Positions 5,096 to 64,000 of a DNA stretch of 64,000 nucleotides are shown in pieces. Each line of letters opens with the position of its first letter. Position 1 is the stretch's first letter. A program made the translations under genes and the position numbers. Origin of the DNA: Sphyrna mokarran (Eukaryota); contig JAGIQG010000002.1 of assembly GCA_024679065.1 (NCBI GenBank), forward strand, positions 82,894,001 to 82,958,000, given 5' to 3'. The notes under the pieces are model-generated. The model was not told the origin of the DNA. It did no database searches and saw nothing but the letters and a program-made list of their open reading frames with translations.

Positions 5096-5834
5096 TACAT
5101 TCACACAAATGTAAAGATCAAAAAAGCTGCTTCAATTTTGCCTTCTTGAACACTCCAATCTCATTGGGCATGAGAAATTAAAGCCAGGCTTAAAAATGTA
5201 CCCCTAAAGGGCAGTTTTTCCTCAAGCCTTGTCCCTGAGGAAATCCCATTTCCTCAGATGAAAAAAATTGGCTTGGTGCATCCACTCCATTTTTACATTG
5301 CTCCAGGATTTCTTATGCTTTCTTGGGAAGCTAGAACTGGATCAGAAAAGGCTCTTTGTAGGTATGCTTTCTGACCTTCATCTTCCTGGCCATTGTCTCA
5401 GGTAACCCCACCATTCCAATTTTAGGTTCGTATCAATCCCTCACCGAGCTTCTGGTCTCATTTTCATTCCGTGATTGCATACTTCCAGTTCCATAACATT
5501 GGTCATCTTTTTCCATCTGCCACTGGAACTCTGTGCCTTTGCCTCCTCCAGCCTTGACTAATCCAATGCGCTGCCAGCCAGCCTCCTATTCTCCATGGTT
5601 TTAAAACTCCACTTGCTGCACCTATCTTATCCAGCATCCATTTCTGCTCACTATTCAACTTTGTTGACCATCTGATTGCCAAAGGCAAAGAGTGGGTTTA
5701 AGTGTTTTCATTTTAACTGTACCCCAGGATCAGCAAACAGAAGGTTCTAGTCTAAGAGACGGCAATACTATACTCAAGGAGCTGCCAAATTCCATGACTA
5801 CATGTCATCAGCATCTGCTTTATTTGGAATGGTA

Positions 5835-6125
5835 TGGTGGCACAGTGTTTAACAATGCTGCCTTGAGGCGCCAGAGACCCAGATTCAATTGTGTGGAGTT
5901 TGCACATTCTCCCCATGTTTGTGTGGGTTTTCTCTGGGTGTTCTGTTTTCCTCTCACAATCCAAAGATGCGTAGGTTAGGTTGATTGGCCAAGCTAAATT
6001 GACCCTCGTGTCAGGGATATTAGCAGAGTAAATATGTGGGGCACGGGTGGGATTGTGGTCAGTGCAGACTTGATAGGCCAAATGACATTCTTCTGCATTG
6101 TAAGGATTCTATTGATTCTATGATT
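5835..6125 (+). mobile_element. V-SINE (HE1-like), CR1-tailed type
   Basis: A-box-like tggcacagtg; V core tgtggagtttgcacattctcccc...ggtgttctgttttcct; tail ttctgcattgtaaggattctattgattctatg. Confidence 0.9.
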
Positions 6126-11446: not shown

Positions 11447-11730
11447 AAGTTTAAGTTTATTATTAGAGTCATAAGTAGGTTTGCATCAACATTGCAATGA
11501 AATCTCTTAGTTGCCACACTCTTCAGTTACACTGAGGAAGAACTTGGCATGACCAATGTGTCTAATCAGCACGTCTTTCAGATCATGGAGGAAACCAGAA
11601 CACTCGGAGGAAACCCACGCAGACATTGGGAGCACGTGCAGGCTTTGCACAGACAGTAATCCAAGCTGGGAATTGAATCTGGATCCCTGGTGCTGTGAGG
11701 CAGCAGTGATAACCACTGTGCCACCATGCC
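11447..11730 (-). mobile_element. V-SINE, Rex1-like-tailed type
   Basis: Reverse strand head ggcatggtggcacagtggttatcactgctg, V core, tail ...acttatgactctaataataaacttaaactt. Confidence 0.9.
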
Positions 11731-18395: not shown

Positions 18396-18729
18396 CATGG
18401 TCTGCACAGTGTTGAGTACTGCTGCCTCACAGCTTCAGGAATCTGGGTTCAATTCCAGCCTTGGGTGACTGTCAGTGTGGAGTTCGCCCTGGGTCTGCAA
18501 GAGTTTCCTCCAGATTTTCCGGTTTCCTCTCACAAATTGGCCATGCTAAATTGCCCCTAAGTGTCTAAAGATGTGTAGATTAGGACGATTAGTGGAGTAA
18601 ATATATGGGATTATGGAGATAAGGCGGAGAGTATGGATGAACCAGGGTAAGATACTTGGTTGGGGAGTCGGTACAGATTTAATGGACTGAATGACTGCTT
18701 GTACACTGCAGGCATTCTATAATTCTATG
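18396..18729 (+). mobile_element. V-SINE, CR1-tailed
   Basis: gcacagtg..tactgctgcctcacagc..gggttcaattcc; tail acactgcaggcattctataattctatg. Confidence 0.9.
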
Positions 18730-27295: not shown

Positions 27296-29025
27296 ACCAA
27301 ATCAGAACAATGCCACAACAAGGTATTGGCATAGTGCCAATCTGGGAGTGCCTACCTGTGCCAGGGCAGTGCCAAGGAGCATTTCCCTCTCCTCTGGGCA
27401 GCTAAAATCATCTTTAGCACTCCTCCCAAGGATCCCCAAGACAGGTTCATATCTAGTTGAACCTGTTGTGAACCGTGCCATGACGTGACACTGGCACAGT
27501 TTGAATATACGAGGGGTGTCAACATTCGGATGGGGGGTGGTTTTTATATTTAAAAAAGATCAAAATGAATGTAGAGCAGATTCACACCCATACGTCATCA
27601 GTGAGGGGTTGTGAGAATTGGAAGCCAATTGTGACTTCTGGGATTTTGCCAAATCTTAGGCACTACCTCCTGTAACCATTACCATGGATAGTGTGAATGG
27701 GCTCGAGATTGCCCCAGTGTTATTTTCTATTGCTGTCATGTAAATAATTTGATTGCTTAAGGATAGAGCTCTGATATAGAGAAACAGGAGGGATGTTACA
27801 GGGGCAGGAAAGGGGGGGGACTTGATAGTCCCACGTGAGGTCTTGATAAGCCAAAGTACGATGGCCTCAAGATAGGAAGGGATAAGTTCCACATGGGGCA
27901 TTGGGACATTGACATCAAACGGTTCAAGAGGGAGGACAGAGGTATCACCAATTACTACAATGGGACTAATGATTAGAAGGGGAAGAACTGGATGATTGGA
28001 GAGAGATCAGCTTTCAAAGATCCTTTGTTCCTCTTGTGGGAGATCCCCTGTGTAGAAGGAACCAACTAAAAAGGGGAAATAAGACGGAACTATTCCAAAT
28101 GAGCTGAAGATCTTTAAACGCTGCAGCTGCCACTGGAGGAGGATAATTTGGGACACCAAACTATATGGAAAGGTATTCAACATCGGATGTAAAATACATG
28201 GCCAACAAAAGAAGAAAACCTCAGCCTACTTCGTAAAAAAGTGTCAAATTTGCATAAGAACTGAAGTAAGTCCTGCTGATTTTTTCAGCGGGGTTTTCAA
28301 AATGCATCTCCCGCACTCTGTGCATGCAGAGTGCATTAGCACGAATCTCGCAAAAAAAATCAGTGGGTGGGGCCTATTCCTACATAAGAGGCCAGCAGCG
28401 GGCCAAAGTGCATGCACCGATCTGTCAGTGCCAAGATTGGCACATGGACAGTAGCCTTTTTCTGGCAGCCTCCCAATCACTGGCTATCTCAACTGCTGGC
28501 CAGCCTGCGATCCCACATCATCTTCCAATTCCCCCTTCTCCCCACCTCCCCACTATGATTTCTGTGGTGAGGGAATGGGAAAACTTTCCTCTTTGCTTTC
28601 AGCTGTTTCCCTTGACTCAGCATTCCCCCTGGCCCCCCACAGCCAGTCAAACATTAGCCCTCCAAATTCCCCCTTTACCTCCATATCGCCTCCCACTGAT
28701 CCTGCAGGTCAAGCAAGCCTTGCTTCCCACACCCCACTTTGCCTCCCCGGCGGAATTGGAGCAGCTGTGAGTGCAATGCCGTGAAAGTTGGAGAATGTTA
28801 CACACACATACCTCAAGGTCATGGGTGAAGAAGGCTTGCCATGTACATGTCACCTATATATGGTTGTGAATCATGCTGGTCTAGCTGCTGATATGGCCTT
28901 TTTGAATGGAGGGGCTGGAGGTCTGAGTTTTCAATGAGTATTCCTAATATTCAAACTAATATGGGTATATTTCCCAGTATGGCATGGAAGTTAGGAATGG
29001 AAAATCAAGAACTACTTTTTCTTTT

Positions 29026-29310
29026 TAAAGTTTATTTATTAGCGTCACAAGTAGACCTTTATTAATACTGCAATGAAGTTCTGTGAAAATCCCCTAGTTG
29101 CCACAGTCCAGCGCCTGTTTGGTTACACTGAGGAAGAATTTAGCATGGCCAATCCACCTAACCAGCACATCTTTTGGACTGTGGGAGGAAACCACAGCAC
29201 CCAGAGTAAATCCACACAGACAAGAGGAGAACTTGCACAGACGGTGACCCAAGCCAGGAATGGAACCCGGGCCCCTGAGGCAGCAATGCTAGCCACTGTG
29301 CCGTCATGCC
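29026..29310 (-). mobile_element. V-SINE, Rex1-like tail
   Basis: aaagtttatttattagcgtcacaagtag...gaaaatcccctagttgccac...ccactgtgcc. Confidence 0.9.
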
Positions 29311-33789: not shown

Positions 33790-34040
33790 ATAGACATTGG
33801 GACAATTCCTTTGATATTCTTTACAATAATGCCATAGGATTCTTTCTTCCATTTGAGTCAGCAGTGTGCCCATTAGTTTAACTTTTCATCTGAAATAAAG
33901 TGATAGTGCAGAATTTCCTCAGTACTGTTCTGCAAAGAGATGTTAGCTAGGTTTTGAACTTGAGTTTAGAATGGGACTTGAATCCACTAGCCATTGATTC
34001 AGAGATGGGAATATTACCACTGTGTAATGGCTGACACCTA
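33790..34040 (-). mobile_element. DeuSINE (SacSINE1-like)
   Basis: aataatgccataggattc, gtttaac..tcatctgaaa, agtgcag..tttcctcagtactg, gggacttgaatccac, ggctgacacc. Confidence 0.75.
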
Positions 34041-34164
34041 GTGAGCTAACCAGGGAAGCAGTTACTGACTTCTCTTAACAATAATCTGATAAACATGAGT
34101 AAAAAAGTCATTGGTGATGACAGAGTGGTACATTAAATCATTTTCCACTTTTTCTGTTCACTTG

Positions 34165-34240
34165 TAAGAAGTCTCACAATATCAGCTTTATTTGGAATCA
34201 TGAACTTTCAGAGCGCTGCTCCATCATCAAGTGAGTGATG
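34165..34240 (-). mobile_element. Penelope pLTR fragment with a degenerate hammerhead core
   Basis: gtaagaagtctcacaa...actttcagagcgctgctccatcatcaagtgagtg; matches the left arm of 56053. Confidence 0.7.
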
Positions 34241-36849
34241 ACTCATTTGATCTAAAGTGAGGGATCTGCAAGTTCACAATTTGATTGTCAGCTCAGTAGG
34301 GTGATAAAGGTTTTAGCTGTCTTTGATGTAGAACTATGAATACAAAAGTTTGTTTTTGTAAGGGATTATTCCTTGAATTAAACATTTCTTACCATAGAGG
34401 ATGAAGTCCTTGAAAGAAATGTTTCACTGGTTTTATAATGGATTAAGTACCTCAAATAATTTGAATGCATTGAATGGGTATTTATCAATGAAAGTGCTTA
34501 TAAACAGATTGAAATCTGCAACTGATAGTTTAACTTCATTTTATTTCACCTCAGCATAGCTCATGAGGGCTGTCCATGGTGGACACTGGTGACTTGGCAT
34601 GGAGGGTATAAGAACAAAGAATAGTGGAAGGGGGCATGGGTTGACGTGATTTGGTACTAAGTTAGCATAGTGGTTATTAATGGCAATGGGGATATTTGGC
34701 AGGATGTGGTCATGGGTTGGCATGAGTTGAGACTGATTTGGCATGGTGTGCATAAGAAGCTATGAGGAGGGTAGAGGAGTATAAACTTGCATTGAGGGTA
34801 AGATAGACTATGTTATGAGCTGGCATGAATGGGACAGGGGGAGACTGTGGAAGGGGCTGATGGGGAAGTGCTTTAGGGCTGATTTTCATTTTAATTCATT
34901 TTTTACAACTGGGATAAAGTATCAGACCATCAAGGTGAGCCTTTTAAACAGCCCTCCTGGGAACGGAGCAGCTACTGTGGGTGCCTCCCACTGTTTCCAA
35001 GGACAGCAGCTCTTCTCTTTTATTCCTTGACCTTTTGCTTCATATATCCATTTTCCCCTCAGGATTAATCTCGATATTGATATAAAAACAGTTAGTGCTA
35101 TTTTTAGTGGCTAGTCTAGTATGCTTTGATTCCATGGAAACAACTGGACCAAAGCCCATTTGCAGAAGATCTGTTTTCTGGTTATAATGTACAAAGAGTA
35201 AAATAGGTAGGTTAATTATCCTTTAAGTATAATCCCCAATAACATGTGCAGTCTCTGGTTGTGTTGGCTGTATGGTCACTTATACTGGCCCAATCTGCAG
35301 CAAAAACGACCCCATCAACTAAAACAAAAGTTCTCTGTTTTTCCCTCAGAGGATATATGGAACAGACTTCCAGTAAAAGTAGCTGACGCTGAGACAAGTA
35401 ATTATTTAAAAATAAAGAGCTGGATAAATATCTAGTTGAGAATAGGATTGTTGGCAAGAGGGTACGTCTAGATGAGATGATCACAATGGTTTGTGTGTTG
35501 AAGAAGCACTTGCTCAGTGGGAGAGGGCAAAGTTATTAGGTGAATCATTCTTATCCATTTTCAGAACTTGGGTCTAACAAGAGTGACTCATGAAAAACTA
35601 ATAAAGAAGTAAAGGAAGTTCTACATTTCTAGCCAAGGGAGACAAAGGAATGGGGCAGACAGGAAATTAGGGTTAAGGCCATAATCAGATCAGCCGTAAT
35701 CTTAACAGCTTGAGAGGCCAAACAGCCTACTCTTGCTCCTAGTTCTTGGGTTCTTATACAAGGCACCTTTCACAACCTCAGGATCACCTGAAACTTTGAG
35801 AATGAAGTGTGGGAAATTTATGAGGGTTAGCTGTACTTTGAGATTAGATAATAAAATTGGTTCACCATCTCAGCATGTGGTTCCCTGGTTCTGTGGTGGC
35901 AAGATGTATATTGGAGAATATTATAGTTAGCTATGAAATGTACAATTAAAAACATACATCATCTGTCTATTTATTTGTGTTAGGGTGAGAACTGCCACAA
36001 GAGTTATTTATATTTATTTCTGTGCCACTTTCAACATAGAAAACATACCATTGATACTTTACAGAACAGGAAGAAACAATAATTAACATAGTTGCAGAAT
36101 TGGACATCTTCCCGTGGAGCAGGTACAGACTGGTAGTGAGGGGAGGGCCAAGATGGCTGACTCCTCTGCCCAAAGTGAAGCCCAAAGTCAGAAAATCACA
36201 GGCTGTTGTAAGACTAAAGGAGAATGCAGAAATAGGGGGCTGGATGTTGTGTTTCAGAAATGGAATGATACTAGTACCACGAAAGAATAATTTCCAATAT
36301 GATGCCATCAAGTGACAAATCCAACATCATCACGTCAGTCAACAATAATACAGTGGGCAACTATGCCCTAAAATCAGGAGTCCTCCCACTATTTTGAAAT
36401 GAGTAATTAACAACTATTCAAGTTCATTAGCAGTTCAATCGACTGTAATAATATATTCCCAGTACCATGATATATCAAGTATCTAAAACATAGAAATTGT
36501 GAACACTAATACTGTAGGAGCCTCCAAATCCAGCAACTACAGGGAACCTCGTTCAGAAGAAACATATGGTAGTGCCATCTTGGATTACCCAATAGCATTT
36601 AAAGTTCAACACACTGTTTTAAAATGTAATGACCATGGATCAAGCATCTACCACACCAGACATATGTACCACTCAGTTCTCACCAATGACTTTTTTACTC
36701 ATGTTTATCTGAATACTGTTAAGAGAAGTCGGTAATTGCTTCCCTGGTTAGCTCACTAGCTGTCAGCCATTACACAGTAGTAGTACTCCCACCCCTGAAT
36801 CAGACCTACATCAGTCACACAATTGGGAACTTTGCATAAAGTTCATGAT

Positions 36850-37995: not shown

Positions 37996-38804
37996 ACAGA
38001 CAAGCAGAAGTAGAAGTAAAGTAATGTAAATAACAGGAATACACTGTAAGTATTTTGGATAAAGACGAGGGGGAAGTGTAGTATAAGGGACTGGTATTGA
38101 AATGGTTAATGTGGGACTGGGTACATTACTGCTCATTGAGTGGGACCTAAAAAAATACATGACCCAAGTCTAGAGGGCAGTCATGGACTGGACAGAACCA
38201 TGTGTAGAAGCAAGCATGGAGACAGCTCATAACTTAAAGCTTATAATGTATACACAGTCCACTGGCCCTTGTCTGCAATGCCTTTTGCAGCTGCCCTCTG
38301 ATTCCCTAACGCCATGAGGGCCCCAACATGCTGGGGGTTTCCTACACAGTGACAGGAGGTGGCAAGCAAAGATACCTGTGCCAATGGCAGAGAAATGAAG
38401 GAAAGACACACTGCATCACAAGCACCCTGAGAGTTGCCCTTGACAACATCAACTGCTGCTTCCCTTCCACCACAAGATCCATTTGTTACTGACTGCTTTC
38501 TTGAGAGGGATGTAAATTTGGGATCCTTATCCCTCCTATCACCCTAGCTCTGATCCCTACTCTGAGTATAGGTCAGAACGAATGCCCACAACTACTCCAG
38601 TAGTTGGGTTTGGCCACCCAAGACAGTTGCCAATAGAGGAAGTGGTATGTCCTGTAGAGTTGGTGATCCCTGTGCTCACGGCCTGGATGGACTCCTCCTG
38701 TGACCGTGTCAAAACATGCAACCCTCTGCCTCATCGCCACACACCTTGTGCTGGTCGGCCAGCATCTGGTGATTTATAAACGACTCCAGAGATTTCGACG
38801 GGGA

Positions 38805-40080
38805 CTCAACGGGGTTTCGTGAAGGGTAGGTCATGCCTTACTAACCTCATTGAGTTTTTTGAGAAAGTGACCAAAGAGGTGGATGGGGGTAAGGTGGTTG
38901 ATGTAGTATATATGGACTTTAGTAAGGCGTTTGATAAGGTGGCCCATGGAAGACTTCTACAGAAAATGCAGATGTGTGGAATAGAGGGTGATTTAGCTAA
39001 TTGGATTAGGAATTGGCTGGCAGATAGAAGACAGAGGGTGGTGGTTGATGGGAGATATTCATCGTGGAGTTCGGTGACGAGTGGTGTGCCTCAGGGGTCT
39101 GTTTTGGGGCCCCTGCTGTTTGTAATTTTTATAAATGATCTGGATGAGGGTATTGAAGGATGGATTAGTAAATTTGCAGATGACACTAAAGTCGGTGGAG
39201 TGGTAGATAGTGAAGAGGGGTGTTATAGTTTGCAGAGGGACTTGGACAAGTTGCAGAGCTGGGCCGAGAGGTGGCAAATGGAGTTTAATGTGGAAAAGTG
39301 TGAGGTAATGCACTTTGGCAGGAACAATAAATGTGTAGAGTATAGGGCTAATGGTAGGGCTCTTAATAGTGTTGAGGAACAGAAGGATCTTGGTGTATGT
39401 GTCAATAGATCCCTGAAAGTAGGCAGTCAAGTGGATAAAGTTGTTAAGAAGGCATATGGAGTCTTAGCTTTTATTGGTAGGGGGATTGAATTTAGGAGCC
39501 GCAGCATCATGTTGCAACTGTACAAAACTCTAGTGCGGCCGCACTTGGAGTATTGTGTGCAGTTCTGGTCCCCACATTATAAGAAAGATGTGGAGGCATT
39601 GGAGAGGGTACAGAGGAGGTTTACCAGGATGTTGCCTGGTATGGAGGGCAGGTCCTATGAAGAGAGGTTGAAGGATTTGAGGTTGTTTCGTTAGAAAGGA
39701 GGCGGCTAAGAGGGGATCTTATTGAAGCATATAAGATGATTAGAGGTTTAGATAGGGTGGACAGTGATAGCCTTTTTCCTAGGATGGAGAAAGCTAGCAC
39801 GAGGGGACACAGCTTTAAATTAAGGGGTATGAGTTATAGGACGGATATCAGAGGTAGGTTCTTTACTCAAAGAGTGATTAGGGAGTGGAATGCCCTGCCT
39901 GCAGCTGTTGTAGATGCGCCAAGTTTGGTGGCGTTTAAGAGGTTAATTGATAAGTATATGGAAGAGAAGGGAATGGTTTAGTTTGGAGGGGCATTGCTTT
40001 TTATTTTGGTCGGCACAACATCGAAGGCCGAAGGGCCTGTTCTGTGCTGTAATGTTCTATGTTCTATGTTCTATGTTCTA
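38805..40080 (+). mobile_element. Young 5'-truncated CR1 (HER1-like) LINE
   Basis: Open RT frame; tail gggcctgttctgtgctgtaat followed by (GTTCTAT)n. Confidence 0.97.
38819..39981 (+). pseudogene. CR1 ORF2 reverse transcriptase C-terminal half with a single frameshift
   Basis: GRSCLTNLIEFF, YMDFSKAFDKV, GVPQGSVLGPLLF, KFADDTK, RPHLEYCVQFW. A 1-nt loss at ttt 39686-39688 joins LRLF to (S)LERRRLRGDLIEAYKMIRGLD (ORF 39736-39981). Confidence 0.95.
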
Positions 40081-44832: not shown

Positions 44833-45015
44833 CATGACAGCTCAGTGATTATCACTGTGCTGTGCAGATACATGGATTTGGGCCTGTACCTGTGGGAGTT
44901 TGCACATTCTCCCTGTGCTTGCCTGGGTTTTCTCCGGGTGCTCCGGTTTCCTCTCATACCTCAAATATGTGCTCTTAGGCTGATTGGCAAAACAAATTCT
45001 CTCTAAATTGTCTCA
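44833..45015 (+). mobile_element. V-SINE head and core
   Basis: ggagtttgcacattctccctgtgcttgcctgggttttctccgggtgctccggtttcc. Confidence 0.85.
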
Positions 45016-48559: not shown

Positions 48560-49320
48560 GCATCAACTCATATACTGCTGAAAAATTCATTCATAACTTT
48601 GTTACCCCCAGATTTGACTATTCATGGTGGCACAGTGGTTAGTACTGCTGCCTCACAGCTCCAGGGACCTGGGTTCGATTCCCGGCTTGCGTCACTGTCC
48701 CTGTGGAGTGTGCACGTTCTCCCTATGTCTGTATGGGTTTCCTTTGGATGCTCTGGTTTCCTCCCACAAACAGAAAGACGTGCTGGTTAGGTGCATTGGC
48801 CATACTAAATTATCCCTCAGCATACCCAAACAGGCACCTGAGTGTTGCGACTAGGAAATATTCACAATAACTTTGTTGGAGTGTTAATGTAAACCTTATG
48901 TGATACTAATAAATAAACTTCAAACTTAAAGACTTATTCTAACTCATTTAGTTAGATCTGCCCCTAATGCTCTACCCTCTAAATTTGACATTATCCAAAA
49001 CTCTGCTATTTGTGTCCTAACTCGCGTCAAGTCCCATGCACTTATCATTCCTACTGCTCAATGACTTACGTAGGCTCCTGGTTAAGCAACATCTCAGTTT
49101 CAGAAATCTCATTGCTTTCTTTCACATAATCCCATGGTCTTGCCTGTCCCTAACGCAGCCTCACAATCCTCGGAGATAGCTGTCTGGCTCTAATCCTGGC
49201 CTCTTGCACATCACTGAGTTTAATTGCACTACCATTGTTAGTTATGTCTTCAGTTGCCTCAGCTCTAAGCTTTGAATTCCATTCTTAAATCTCACTGCTT
49301 TTCCAACTTGCTTTCCAAAC
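48560..49320 (+). mobile_element. L2 LINE 3' region interrupted by a V-SINE
   Basis: FVTPRFDY(S) resumes after the SINE; IIQNSA..VLTRVKS..LND(L)..LLV; typical L2 C-terminus and tail. Confidence 0.75.
48623..48930 (+). mobile_element. V-SINE, Rex1-like tail
   Basis: catggtggcacagtggttagtactgctg, gggttcgattccc (B box), tail tgtgatactaataaataaactt; flanks gactattc / gacttattc. Confidence 0.92.
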
Positions 49321-51255: not shown

Positions 51256-51573
51256 GGCACTTCTCAGCCTTTTGGCTAAAATCAACTGTGGTACCTACAT
51301 GCTGCATTTGGTTGAAGTCATTAGGTTACATTTCAACTTCATTTGAAGCAATTTTTTAAAACAGTATCTTGGCCTTTTGGCTAAGATGAAAATAAGATCA
51401 AGTCTTGGAGGCGGAGCTACACCTACTCCAATCAGCTTAGATCGTGTAGATCAAGCCCAAGAGAGGTGGTGAGAGCCCTGACTTGTCAGCTTGGATCAGA
51501 AATGTCCTAAGTTGTTGGGACTCTGAATTTGATTTAATTTGACTTGATTGGATTGGAATAAAGTTTAAAAAAT
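51256..51573 (+). mobile_element. U2 snRNA-derived, A-tailed SINE-like retroelement
   Basis: 51256-51296 matches U2 nt 1-41 at 33/41 by manual alignment; second U2 block tcttggccttttggctaagat at 51367-51387; aataaa and A tail; TSD aactgcc(c/a)cttt at 51242-51253 and 51574-51585. Confidence 0.8.
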
Positions 51574-56052: not shown

Positions 56053-56416
56053 CAGTAAGAAGTCTCACAACACCAGATTAAAGTCCAACAGATTTATTGG
56101 GTAACACAAGCCACAAGCTTTCAGGGTGCTGCTCCTTCATCAAGTGAATGAGAGTTTAATCCTTTCTCCACTCACATTTTCTGTACCTTTAAGACTTGAT
56201 CACATATAAAGACTCACATTCCAACCATTATTTTGTAAATTGAGTTTGTATCTTTATATGCTCTGTTTGTCAACAGAACTTCCACTCACTTGATGAAGGA
56301 GGAGCCTCTGAAAGCTAGTGGCTTGTGCTACCAAATAAACCTGTTAGACTCTAACCTGATGTTGTGAGACTTTTTACTGTACTTATCCCAGTCCAACGCC
56401 ACCATCTCCACATCAT
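56053..56416 (+). mobile_element. Penelope-like element 3' end with inverted pLTR and hammerhead-like cores
   Basis: Inverted arms ~56053-56156 and ~56277-56379; ttgatgaaggaggagcctctgaaagct; terminus cccagtccaacgccaccatctccaca. Confidence 0.8.
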
Positions 56417-57055: not shown

Positions 57056-57300
57056 AAAGTTTATTAATTAATCACAAGCAAGGCTTACATTAACTTTGCA
57101 ATTAAGTTATGGTGAAATTCCCTTAGTTGCCACACTTTGGTGCTTGTTTGGGTCAATGCACCTACCAGCACATCTTTCAGACTGTAGCAGGAAACCGAAG
57201 CACCTGGAGAAAACCTACACAGACATGGGGAGAACATGCAAATTCCACACAGGCAGTGACCCAAGCCAGGAATCAAACTCAGGTCCCTGGCACTGTGTCA
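57056..57300 (-). mobile_element. V-SINE, Rex1-like tail
   Basis: aaagtttatta..tcacaagcaaggcttacattaac...gaaaccgaagcacctggagaaaacc. Confidence 0.9.
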
Positions 57301-57969: not shown

Positions 57970-58205
57970 TAGACATCCTAATGCATCTCACCAGCTTTGA
58001 AGCCTAAATTTTCTCTAAAGCTCTCCTGCCCTATCCCTGAACTCGCATCTTTCTTTATGTTTTTTTCTATCCTCCCTCATGCCCACACTGAATTAATCTT
58101 ATCCATTGAAACCACCACCTTCTCCCTTGACCTTGTATTCGTTGAACTATTAGTTATCCAACTTCCCCTTCTGGTTTCTATGTTCGTCAGTGTGTTAATT
58201 GTTTT
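57970..58205 (+). mobile_element. L2 LINE internal fragment
   Basis: LSIETTTFSLDLVFVELLVIQLPLL resembles L2 SMxPTTCSLDPIPTKLL. Confidence 0.55.
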
Positions 58206-58373: not shown

Positions 58374-59010
58374 ATTTGATTTGATTTATTGTTGTCATAT
58401 ATATTGTTATACAATGAAAATATTGTTTCTTGCACACTATACAGACAAAGCATACTATATATTGAGAAGGAAAGGAGGGGGTGCAGAATATAGTGTAACA
58501 GTCATAGACATCCTAATGCATCTCACCAGCTTTGAAGCCTAAACTTTTTCTAAAGCTCTCCTGCTCTATCCCTGAAACTCGCATCTTTCTCTACGCCCCA
58601 CACAGGGTGTAGAGAAAGAGCAACTTAGTTTAAGGTAGAGCCAGTCAAAATTCTGATGGCAGCAGGGAAGAAGCTGTTCTCAAGTTGGTTGATACATGAT
58701 CTCAGACTTGTGTATCCTCTCCTTGACGGAGGAAGGAACAAGACAGTATGAACAGAATGCTTGTGAACATTGATTATTGCTGGCTATTTTTCTGAGGCAG
58801 TGGGAAGTGTAGGCACAGTCAATTGATGGGACACTGGTTTGTATGATGGACAGGGCAATATTCACAATCCTTCGTAATTTCTTGCAGTCTTGGTCAGAGC
58901 AGAGGCCATACCACAATGTGATACAACCAGAAAGCATGCTTTCTATGTTGATTCATAAAAGTTGGTGAGAATCATGCTGAATTTCCTTAGCCTCCAGAGA
59001 AAGTAAAGGC
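58374..59010 (-). mobile_element. Rex1/Babar LINE 3' end carrying a ~95 bp templated insert
   Basis: LSGCITLWYGLCSDQDCKKLRRIVN..SHCLRKIAS; (CAAAT)n tail; homologous to 13446-13772. Confidence 0.88.
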
Positions 59011-61940: not shown

Positions 61941-62291
61941 TTTCAAAGGCAAAATTTTAAAACGTCAGATGAAAGGTTCTAGGGCAGCTATTCTGGGAGG
62001 TACAGATCATTTTTTCTAACGAGAATAGTTTTGTCAACAACAATAGAGATCAACAGTTCAGGACCATAATAAAGACTAATTAAGTGAATACTTCAGGCCC
62101 TTACTACTGACTGGATGTTCTAAGTCTACCAAAGTATCCCCACAGCAGCAGGAGGGGCAAGCCATGAAAAATGCCATAGACATTGGCAGGACAGGAAGAT
62201 CCCACTGGCACCTCGATTGCCAGAAAACTTACTGCAACATGGCGATGGAGGTGGAATCTAGCCTCATTTAAGTCTGGTAAGTGAGCTGAAG

Positions 62292-62454
62292 TGAATCTGC
62301 AAGCTTTCAACTTTCGTCTTTGTCAGGCAAATGCCTGACGATGACGAAAGTCGAAAGCTTGCAGATTTACTATCAAATAAATCGGTTGGATTTAAAATTG
62401 GTGTTGCCACACTGTTACTGAGTTTACCCCAGTCCAACGCCGGCATCTCTACAT
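62292..62454 (+). mobile_element. 163 bp fold-back Penelope-derived element
   Basis: 12 bp TSD agtgagctgaag (62280-62291, 62455-62466); 36 bp inverted arms; terminus ccccagtccaacgccggcatctctaca. Confidence 0.85.
62329..62368 (+). ncRNA. Minimal type I hammerhead ribozyme motif
   Basis: CTGACGA (62335-62341), T, stem II GAC-GAAA-GTC, GAAA, palindromic AAGCTT in place of stem III; stem I aaatgc pairs with gcagattt. Confidence 0.7.
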
Positions 62455-62979
62455 AGTGAGCTGAAGGCCAGCAATGAGGGAATCAGTGTAGCTCATTGGA
62501 TTGAAGCCTAAAGATCAGATTTGGCTGGCTGCAGCAAAGATAACTCGCAGAAATAGGGGGATATCCTGGAGCTTCAGTGAATCTGATTATTCTTGTTAGT
62601 CCAAAAAATACACTCCTGCCTCTTGTTATGGCCGGTCCCTGGGTGAGGTCTCCCAGCTTGTTACGAATCTACATGGGATACCCCCAAATTTTTACACTCC
62701 TGGATGAGAACGGATGAAATGACTTCTCTTTATTTGTACGCCCCTATGATCACAACAAGGTTAATTTAAAAAGAAAGCCTTTTCCCTTGTGGATACCTTT
62801 TTCCTACTATATTTCCCATATAGTTATGTTTTAAAAGGAACCAATGTAATCAAGTTTTCTTGAGTTAAAAAAGATTGTGTTTGTTAGTTGCTGAAATGCA
62901 AGTAGAAAATAATGAAATTCAATGGACATACACACAAATCAGAAATGAGAAGTGAGCCTAAAAATAATATTTAACCAAT

Positions 62980-63292
62980 GGCATGGCATTATGGCACAGT
63001 GGTTAAAACTGCTGTCCCATAGCGCTAAGCACTGTGTTCGATTACCAGCTTGGGTCACTGTCTTTGCAGAGTTTATACATTCTTCCCATGTCTGCGTAAG
63101 TTCCCTCCAGGAACTTTGATTTCCTCCCACAGTCTAAGAAACATGCTGATTGGGTACATTGGCCATGATAAATATTCCCTCAGTGCATCCAAATAGGCGT
63201 TGGAGTGTGGCAACTATGGGATTTTCACAATAACTTCACTGCAGTGTTAATGTAAGCCTACTTGTGACAATAATGAACAAACTTAAACAAAA
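62980..63292 (+). mobile_element. V-SINE, Rex1-like tail
   Basis: tggcacagtggtt..gttcgatt..; tail cttcactgcagtgttaatgtaagcctacttgtgacaataat. Confidence 0.9.
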
Positions 63293-64000
63293 ACTTACGT
63301 ACCTGGATCAGTCTTTGGCTTTTCCATGAGGAGATGGTAAAATGCTGCACCTGTTAAGTTGGGAAAGACTTCTGACTTTGACCATTTGGTTTGGAAATTC
63401 TTGGTTCTGCAGGTTAGCTGTAATTACGAACCTGTCCTGTTTCCTTTTTGACTATGGCTTTGCTGACTTGTGACTTACTTCCAGTAAGCAGGGAGAGATA
63501 GAGACTTCTTCATCTGCAAGCAGGAGTGCCTAGTGAACATTCCTCAACTGTGATTCTCACATCGCACCTTCGTATAGTTGAACTAGAACAACAAACAAGC
63601 ACCTAGGGACAAGGGTTTCAGTTGATTTTTTTCATACTTTTTCCTTTGTACCCCTGGAAAGAGAAAAACACAAATATGTCTAGGATATAACTCATAGGAG
63701 ATTGCCGTCTCTGCTGAGACTATCAGCTTCCATTATCTACACAAGACATTACAGCTCAGTTTTTGTATTATACCTCTTCCTTTGAAATGTCTTTCTGAAA
63801 AAGGGTGCAATATTCTGCTGTCTCTCTTGGGACTGAATATAATTCATGTAGGATTTCCAATAATTGATTACACCACAGTCTCAATTTTTACTTGCATTTT
63901 CCTTTCTGTACAAAACATCTTATTTAAAATATCAATATGTCCATATGTAACTTGTCTAGAAAAACTGCATTTCAGATTTTTGAAAAGTTCCAAACTTAAA

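Follow-up and report, generated by a model that had tools for sequence, protein, structure and literature searches.

The locus under study occupies positions 62280-62466 of a 64-kb stretch of Sphyrna mokarran DNA (hereafter the window, being the whole stretch that was analysed) and consists of an insert enclosed by two + strand copies of a target site duplication (TSD) of 12 bp, at 62280-62291 and 62455-62466, which are identical at 12/12 positions and allow no extension. The perfect 12-bp TSD proposed in an earlier reading of this DNA (the original prediction) was thereby reproduced, and its bounds bear out the proposed insert length of 163 bp. Read from left to right, the insert starts with an inverted arm of 38 bp (62292-62329, - strand), which is 34/38 identical to the sense arm and holds a broken copy of a hammerhead ribozyme, followed by a turning point (62327-62334), read from the sequence as a 3-bp micro-palindrome with a 2-nt spacer at 62330-62331. 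Next come, on the + strand, a minimal type I hammerhead (62332-62363), the body of a pLTR-like end (62364-62418), which includes an AATAAA at 62376-62381 that is common to other copies, and a one-sided "tail" of 36 nt (62419-62454), which forms the 3' end of the insert and is not followed by poly(A). The arms 62294-62329 and 62332-62367 are complementary at 33/36 positions, as had been predicted, and are part of an ungapped inverted match spanning 62290-62371, the sole one above the score cut-off in a hairpin scan of the 64-kb window. The proposed 2-nt loop is correct as regards the spacer between the arms, but the loop of the predicted RNA measures 4 nt (62329-62332).

In order to locate hammerheads, the RNAmotif descriptor of PMC4209133 Fig S7 (stem I of 3-7 bp, CUGANGA plus an optional base, stem II of 3-7 bp, loop of 3-10, and GAAANNUH) was implemented for a search of the window. 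In its strict form this descriptor gave a single match, on the + strand at 62332-62363, while any strict match occurred in 3/200 dinucleotide shuffles. The motif is composed of stem I (62332-62334 with 62361-62363), the core (62335-62341), an extra U (62342), stem II (62343-62345 with 62350-62352, capped by a GAAA loop), the GAAA box (62353-62356) and a palindrome (62356-62359), with cleavage predicted after 62360. It has in common with the hammerheads of Penelope-like elements (PLEs) in PMC4209133 the core boxes, the extra base 9/10.1 (U62342), the G10.1-C11.1 pair (G62343-C62352), the palindromic 15.2-16.2 positions (62356-62359) and a stem I of 3 bp. The claims of a Penelope-type minimal type I hammerhead, of a + strand core with a 3-bp GAAA-capped stem II, and of a cut after 62360 are all consistent with this strict match. 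Stem I (UGC/GCA) is that of coelacanth family 1, and the G-C-U-U ending is that of listed turtle and Philodina motifs (PMC4209133); stem II, with its 3 bp and GAAA tetraloop, lies at the short limit, Caenorhabditis briggsae having 3 bp and vertebrates 5-7 bp (PMC4209133). No motif from a cartilaginous fish was found among the 56 listed in PMC4209133 Fig S3, and Rfam returned no hammerhead family at E values up to 1.

The original prediction placed a hammerhead on each strand, of which only the + strand core is complete. The - strand copy fails the strict descriptor and matches only if G8 is relaxed, its changes being G8>A at 62321, C11.1>U at 62309 and two others at 62319 and 62293; both core changes are CpG-type transitions. 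According to PMC11167929, single changes of G8 or C3 in an anole element (tested as G8C and C3G) abolish cleavage. Considering the G8>A and C11.1>U changes, the insert is therefore taken to carry one complete core and not two. The palindrome AAGCTT, proposed to replace stem III, is present, but the helix III of a dimer would, judging from the descriptor, be confined to the 4-nt palindrome 62356-62359, because A14 and the base at the cleavage site would be engaged if all six bases (62355-62360) were paired. If the two spacer bases are read on the - strand, they allow a better extension of stem I (6 bp, -6.7 versus -4.1 kcal/mol).

Searches of the window by blastn and nhmmer identified three further inserts. 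One of these (1848-1993, - strand) is a sister insertion of the same family, in which an insert of 118 bp (1862-1979) is flanked by TSDs of 14 bp (1848-1861 and 1980-1993); it is the one other copy of this exact family that was found. It is approximately 90% identical to the 62280-62466 insert (61/68 over the 3' end), and both combine a short TSD with the absence of poly(A). The sister copy is arranged head-to-head with its turning point downstream of the ribozyme, so that it carries none, and its tail-less arm holds about 20 nt that are absent from the tail-bearing arm. A 12-nt tandem duplication is present at the junction of this sister insertion.

The remaining two inserts represent a second family. 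The first (56055-56413, + strand) is again head-to-head, is more decayed, has no detected TSD, and contains in both arms a hammerhead with U at position 3; the other (34164-34240, - strand) is a lone inverted arm with a decayed hammerhead, for which only weak TSD candidates of 10 bp or less were found. This arm is situated just inside the left copy of a 139-nt inverted pair (33995-34133 and 36664-36802), the members of which are 90% complementary and 2.5 kb apart. U replaces C at hammerhead position 3 in all three arms of the second family while G8 is kept, and for this reason U3 may be a subfamily trait; the U3-G8 motif is also found in Saccoglossus (PMC4209133 Fig S3).

Along 104 nt, a stretch that begins at the GAAA box and reaches the end, the 163-bp insert is 73% identical to the second family. 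The original prediction had described this family as distinct apart from a shared 3' terminus; the distinction holds, but the likeness exceeds that terminus. The proposal of a second Penelope lineage is likewise supported, given the identity of about 90% to the sister copy against 73% to the copy at 56055-56413 (the 56k copy), together with compensatory changes in the ribozyme stems. These changes affect both sides of 3/5 pairs of stems I and II between the two families, and 24/25 cells of the covariation table are paired, versus 20-62% in slid controls; the predicted covariation was thus found, within a set of five arms that represents only two independent lineages and from which the third stem II pair was omitted owing to an alignment gap.

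Both arms are present head-to-head in 3/4 window inserts, the fourth being the lone inverted arm, and the inverted pLTR layout that had been proposed is hence seen in the 163-bp insert and its relatives. The inverted arms of 1862-1979, 56055-56413 and 34164-34240 start at the same 5-mer, the mirror of 62414-62418, where the body of the pLTR-like end stops. Because of this shared start, the 36 nt of 62419-62454, delimited by the arm ends at 1979, 56055 and 34164, occur on one side only. The left arm of the 62280-62466 insert ends 49 nt short of this usual tail-less point.

The right arm of the 163-bp insert retains 6 CpG where 1.1 would be expected at the window ratio (P about 0.001), whereas the 56k copy holds 1 CpG in 365 nt. 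Together with the intact TSD, this suggests that the family of the 163-bp insert is probably younger than that of the 56k copy, as had been predicted, although the identity between arms does not contribute to this claim, as it is no different in the two copies (33/36 versus 63/72, p 0.75). The uneven loss of CpG between the arms of the insert could point to two different template RNAs, in numbers too small to test.

A peptide profile was built from five window frames and used in two database searches, which returned 3 and 11 proteins, two of them shared, and hence 12 distinct proteins. As judged from their sequences, these look like chance read-throughs of genomic copies, because the similarity ends at the end of the element: after the tail in 7/12, at the tail-less point in 4/12 and between the two in the remaining one. 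None of the 12 is closer to the family of the 163-bp insert than to the 56k family. An antisense arm precedes the sense arm in 4/12 and the turning points vary. In P0003 the antisense arm is only weakly matched (E 2e-4); as read from the translations, both arms of P0127 appear to cover the ribozyme region, P0004 turns within or beside that region, and P0132 turns downstream of it. At the level of these conceptual translations, short hairpins in which both strands contain ribozyme sequence thus prove to be a recurrent outcome. Upon inspection, none of the 12 read-throughs continues into an RT/GIY-YIG ORF, the same protein-database search matched the profile to no PLE protein, and a search among proteins of 39-126 aa with the - strand ORF 62267-62482 gave no candidate.

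The window is repeat-rich animal DNA. Linkage of the insert to an RT/GIY-YIG ORF, as had been suggested, was not observed: among the 225 ORFs in the window with a length of at least 62 aa, a Pfam scan detected no GIY-YIG family (shorter decayed pieces would escape it) and a single RT, which is CR1-like, in addition to one sub-threshold CDT1_C match. The CR1-like LINE piece (38780-39981) contains an open RT frame of 304 aa and a second frame of 106 aa. Its best named vertebrate matches are from the sharks Chiloscyllium (73%) and Stegostoma (75%), followed by rays at 59-66%, turtles and birds being mostly under 60%; a higher-scoring database protein reaches 94%, a Klebsiella-labelled one 78%, and a Proteus-labelled record is also close, these two bacterial labels probably reflecting contamination by animal DNA. 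The ranking of the named vertebrates makes a shark the likely host. A SINE-like family, which presumably resembles the tRNA-derived SINEs of sharks, is present in many copies on both strands (5833-6009, 11519-11730, 18397-18561, 29019-29277, 44895-44969, 48623-48920, 57057-57297 and 62987-63293), one of them about 520 bp to the right of the insert. The window further contains a decayed U2 snRNA-like sequence (51256-51448; Rfam 27.7 bits, E 0.13, below gathering) and a 72-nt direct repeat (57970-58041 and 58505-58576, with 96% identity at a distance of 535 bp), which may represent a long duplication on either side of an insertion. When the flanks were blasted against the window, no empty-site homologue spanning any insertion point was found. 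The ribozyme pattern had no match in GTDB; the tail pattern had four bacterial ones (21-29 nt, plus one of 54 nt at 74% seeded on the pattern), which were taken as chance. Blastn against plasmids and phages gave no match, and a bacterial promoter/terminator scan, not relevant to animal DNA, returned nothing.

The candidate start codon ATG at 62341-62343 (+ strand), which lies at the base of stem II, takes its three letters from A9, the extra U and G10.1. The distance from this ATG to the 3' end of the insert is 114 nt, the 56k copy having 118 nt from A9. The frame stays open over 26 codons and, owing to a one-base gap, is offset relative to the sister copies; its codon-position bias is not significant (third positions account for 9/19 differences, p 0.15; permutation p 0.27). 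For PAc, the Poseidon element of the anole, PMC11167929 places the beginning of the ORF at the base of stem II and the initiation of reverse transcription 111-118 nt further on within the ORF, with the tail enclosed by two RT start sites. Cutting and extension affect both strands of the target, the main template is uncut RNA, and the ribozyme cleaves only when the protein is present. The insert is like PAc in the position of its ATG, in the 114 nt (versus 111-118) to its 3' end and in its one-sided tail of 36 nt. It is unlike PAc in being an end only, with no RT/EN, in having its cut site 20 nt from the ATG (26 in PAc), and in a target that is not notably AT-rich; moreover, the likeness is one of anatomy and not of sequence alignment.

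Further parallels are found in the inverted pLTR insertions of Penelope (PMC3846280, PMC8557442, PMC8969392), which comprise a head-to-head 5'-truncated inverted copy, a palindrome at the junction, a one-sided tail, a short TSD and solo pLTRs, all features shared with the insert. The tail in PLEs is given as 30-40 bp on one side in PMC8557442 and PMC3846280. The present insert differs in its extreme truncation (123 + 38 nt) and in the inverted arm that stops 49 nt short, and the window copies have TSDs of 12-14 bp versus 8-10 bp in the rotifer examples contained therein. PLE minimal hammerheads in pairs on opposite strands and as single truncated copies are described in PMC4209133. The 163-bp insert thus displays the anatomy of a truncated Poseidon/Neptune-type insertion (solo inverted pLTR); the assignment to PLEs rests on this anatomy, and the fact that the whale shark carries PLEs was counted in its favour.

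With a probability of approximately 0.85, we consider that the insert is a single, dead-on-arrival integration of a PLE 3' end that was duplicated head-to-head in the course of its insertion, and that it contains one intact hammerhead motif, which is predicted to be masked, and one copy broken at G8. Known PLE biology explains such a structure well, and for elements of this class it is nothing out of the ordinary. An autonomous EN+ PLE was rejected as its identity, the insert being closed by its TSD at 163 bp and devoid of an RT + GIY-YIG ORF; such an element elsewhere in the genome would have supplied RNA and protein. Since the insert spans the predicted cut site after 62360, the template was uncut or rejoined there. 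The duplication of 12 bp would have arisen when the GIY-YIG endonuclease nicked the target at staggered positions. From one target strand, reverse transcription would then have initiated at the outer end of the tail (62454) and, having copied 123 nt, would have come to a halt just beyond stem I, while the other target strand would have primed a second copy of 38 nt, 49 nt short of the tail-less start, with its 3' end paired to 62370-62375, to which the 3' end of the left TSD is indeed complementary (5 pairs, one bulge). Alternatively, the first cDNA may have used the micro-palindrome to fold back on itself, before it transferred to the target by way of the 62370-62375 microhomology. The left arm would subsequently have undergone neutral decay; 2/4 arm differences are CpG-type transitions in that arm.

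Two-strand priming and fold-back followed by a jump both fit the 163-bp insert. A single fold-back of a tail-primed cDNA cannot, however, make the sister copy, because about 20 nt occur only in its tail-less arm, although a later deletion could also be the source of this difference, a 12-nt duplication being located at its junction. Considering the target-end microhomology and the sister-copy arm difference, we lean towards priming from both target strands, which we take to resemble the twin priming of L1. The standard arm starts of the 1.9k and 56k copies have 2-3 nt of complementarity to the target. For the origin of head-to-head PLE insertions, self-priming on an antisense template is proposed in PMC3846280, and PMC11167929 shows that the protein, for which a dimer is predicted, acts from two internal start sites in cutting and extending both strands. 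Several observations count against the preferred reading of a duplicated PLE end: neither the window ORFs nor the read-throughs provide an RT/GIY-YIG ORF of a PLE, the codon-position bias of the ATG frame is not significant, a single further copy of the exact family was found, the read-throughs are no closer to this family than to the 56k family, the left arm begins short of the usual tail-less point, and in the mirrored stretch the right arm keeps 3/3 CpG while the left has lost 2/3, which is the direction that selection would give.

The folded hairpin RNA has a predicted energy of -80.8 kcal/mol (z -8.8), a value reached by 0/200 shuffles, and forming the ribozyme stems costs 47 kcal/mol with the left arm present versus 4-5 kcal/mol without it. 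Whichever strand is read through, transcription reaches the complementary arm before the ribozyme. Read-through RNA is therefore predicted to form a hairpin of about 40 bp and not to cleave, and the modelled gap of about 47 kcal/mol agrees with the proposal that the fold-back masks the + strand ribozyme. Published minimal hammerheads do not cleave as monomers and do so weakly as dimers. A match to Rfam MIR7807 (38 bits versus a cut-off of 90) reflects the long hairpin only, and a miRNA precursor was rejected; a MITE was likewise dismissed, as inverted repeats at both ends are lacking and approximately 85 nt at the 3' end are not mirrored.

The original prediction also offered a retrozyme-like element, for which no support was obtained. 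The insert resembles non-LTR retrozymes (PMC7229834; 10.64898/2026.07.22.740005) in being short, non-coding and pLTR-derived, with a type I hammerhead and a TSD >4 bp. It differs from them in that it contains no head-to-tail array (0/14 tandem rows in the window overlap the insert) and one complete motif only, with no second same-strand hammerhead in the window, in that its ribozyme is minimal and not canonical, and in that its inverted layout prevents a dimer fold in cis. A related reading, to which we assign a small chance, regards the 163-bp hairpin itself as a non-autonomous unit amplified with PLE proteins, that is, a palindromic SINE- or retrozyme-like family. The clean TSD and the near-symmetric turning point are in its favour, as are the statements of PMC3846280, that mobilisation in trans is possible for pLTR sequence by itself, and of 10.64898/2026.07.22.740005, that retrozymes derive from pLTRs. 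Yet the sister copy turns at a different place and lacks a ribozyme, turning points differ among the related copies, there is no tandem array, and the RT would have to copy through a duplex of approximately 40 bp, so that the hairpin as mobile unit is not supported. An extension of this reading, whose prospects are slender, is a palindromic Penelope-derived family in which a working hammerhead is caged by the antisense arm and released only when PLE protein acts on it or the duplex is processed; if true, this would be a caged-ribozyme retroelement, unlike the tandem retrozymes.

Retention of the insert by the host for its RNA, as a source of small-RNA hairpins or as an antisense-shut ribozyme that is conditionally opened, appears very improbable. 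The excess of CpG in the right arm, its intact core and a duplex of about 40 bp, the size of a pre-miRNA, would agree with it, but a recent insertion would also leave the CpG in place, the Rfam miRNA match stays well below its cut-off, the Pfam scan identified no host exon, and the energy gap leaves little scope for switching. Equally hard to credit is the proposal that a simple truncated PLE end was inserted and that its left arm arose later by local inverted duplication through template switching at replication; this would account for an arm that does not start at the usual tail-less point, and the microhomology at both left-arm ends also fits template switching, whereas the exact abutment of the left arm on the perfect left TSD, and the fact that head-to-head layout is the rule among related copies, contradict it.

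In the literature, no description of PLE hammerheads or of the family of the 163-bp insert in sharks or other cartilaginous fish was found, while retrozymes are reported in one chondrichthyan in 10.64898/2026.07.22.740005. The insert is a PLE end that has probably not been described before; its hammerhead ranks among the smallest of the class, and its host is probably a shark. The origin of head-to-head PLE insertions is unsettled, and short copies bounded by a TSD record both junctions; many such copies from one genome would provide a countable test of the priming mechanism.
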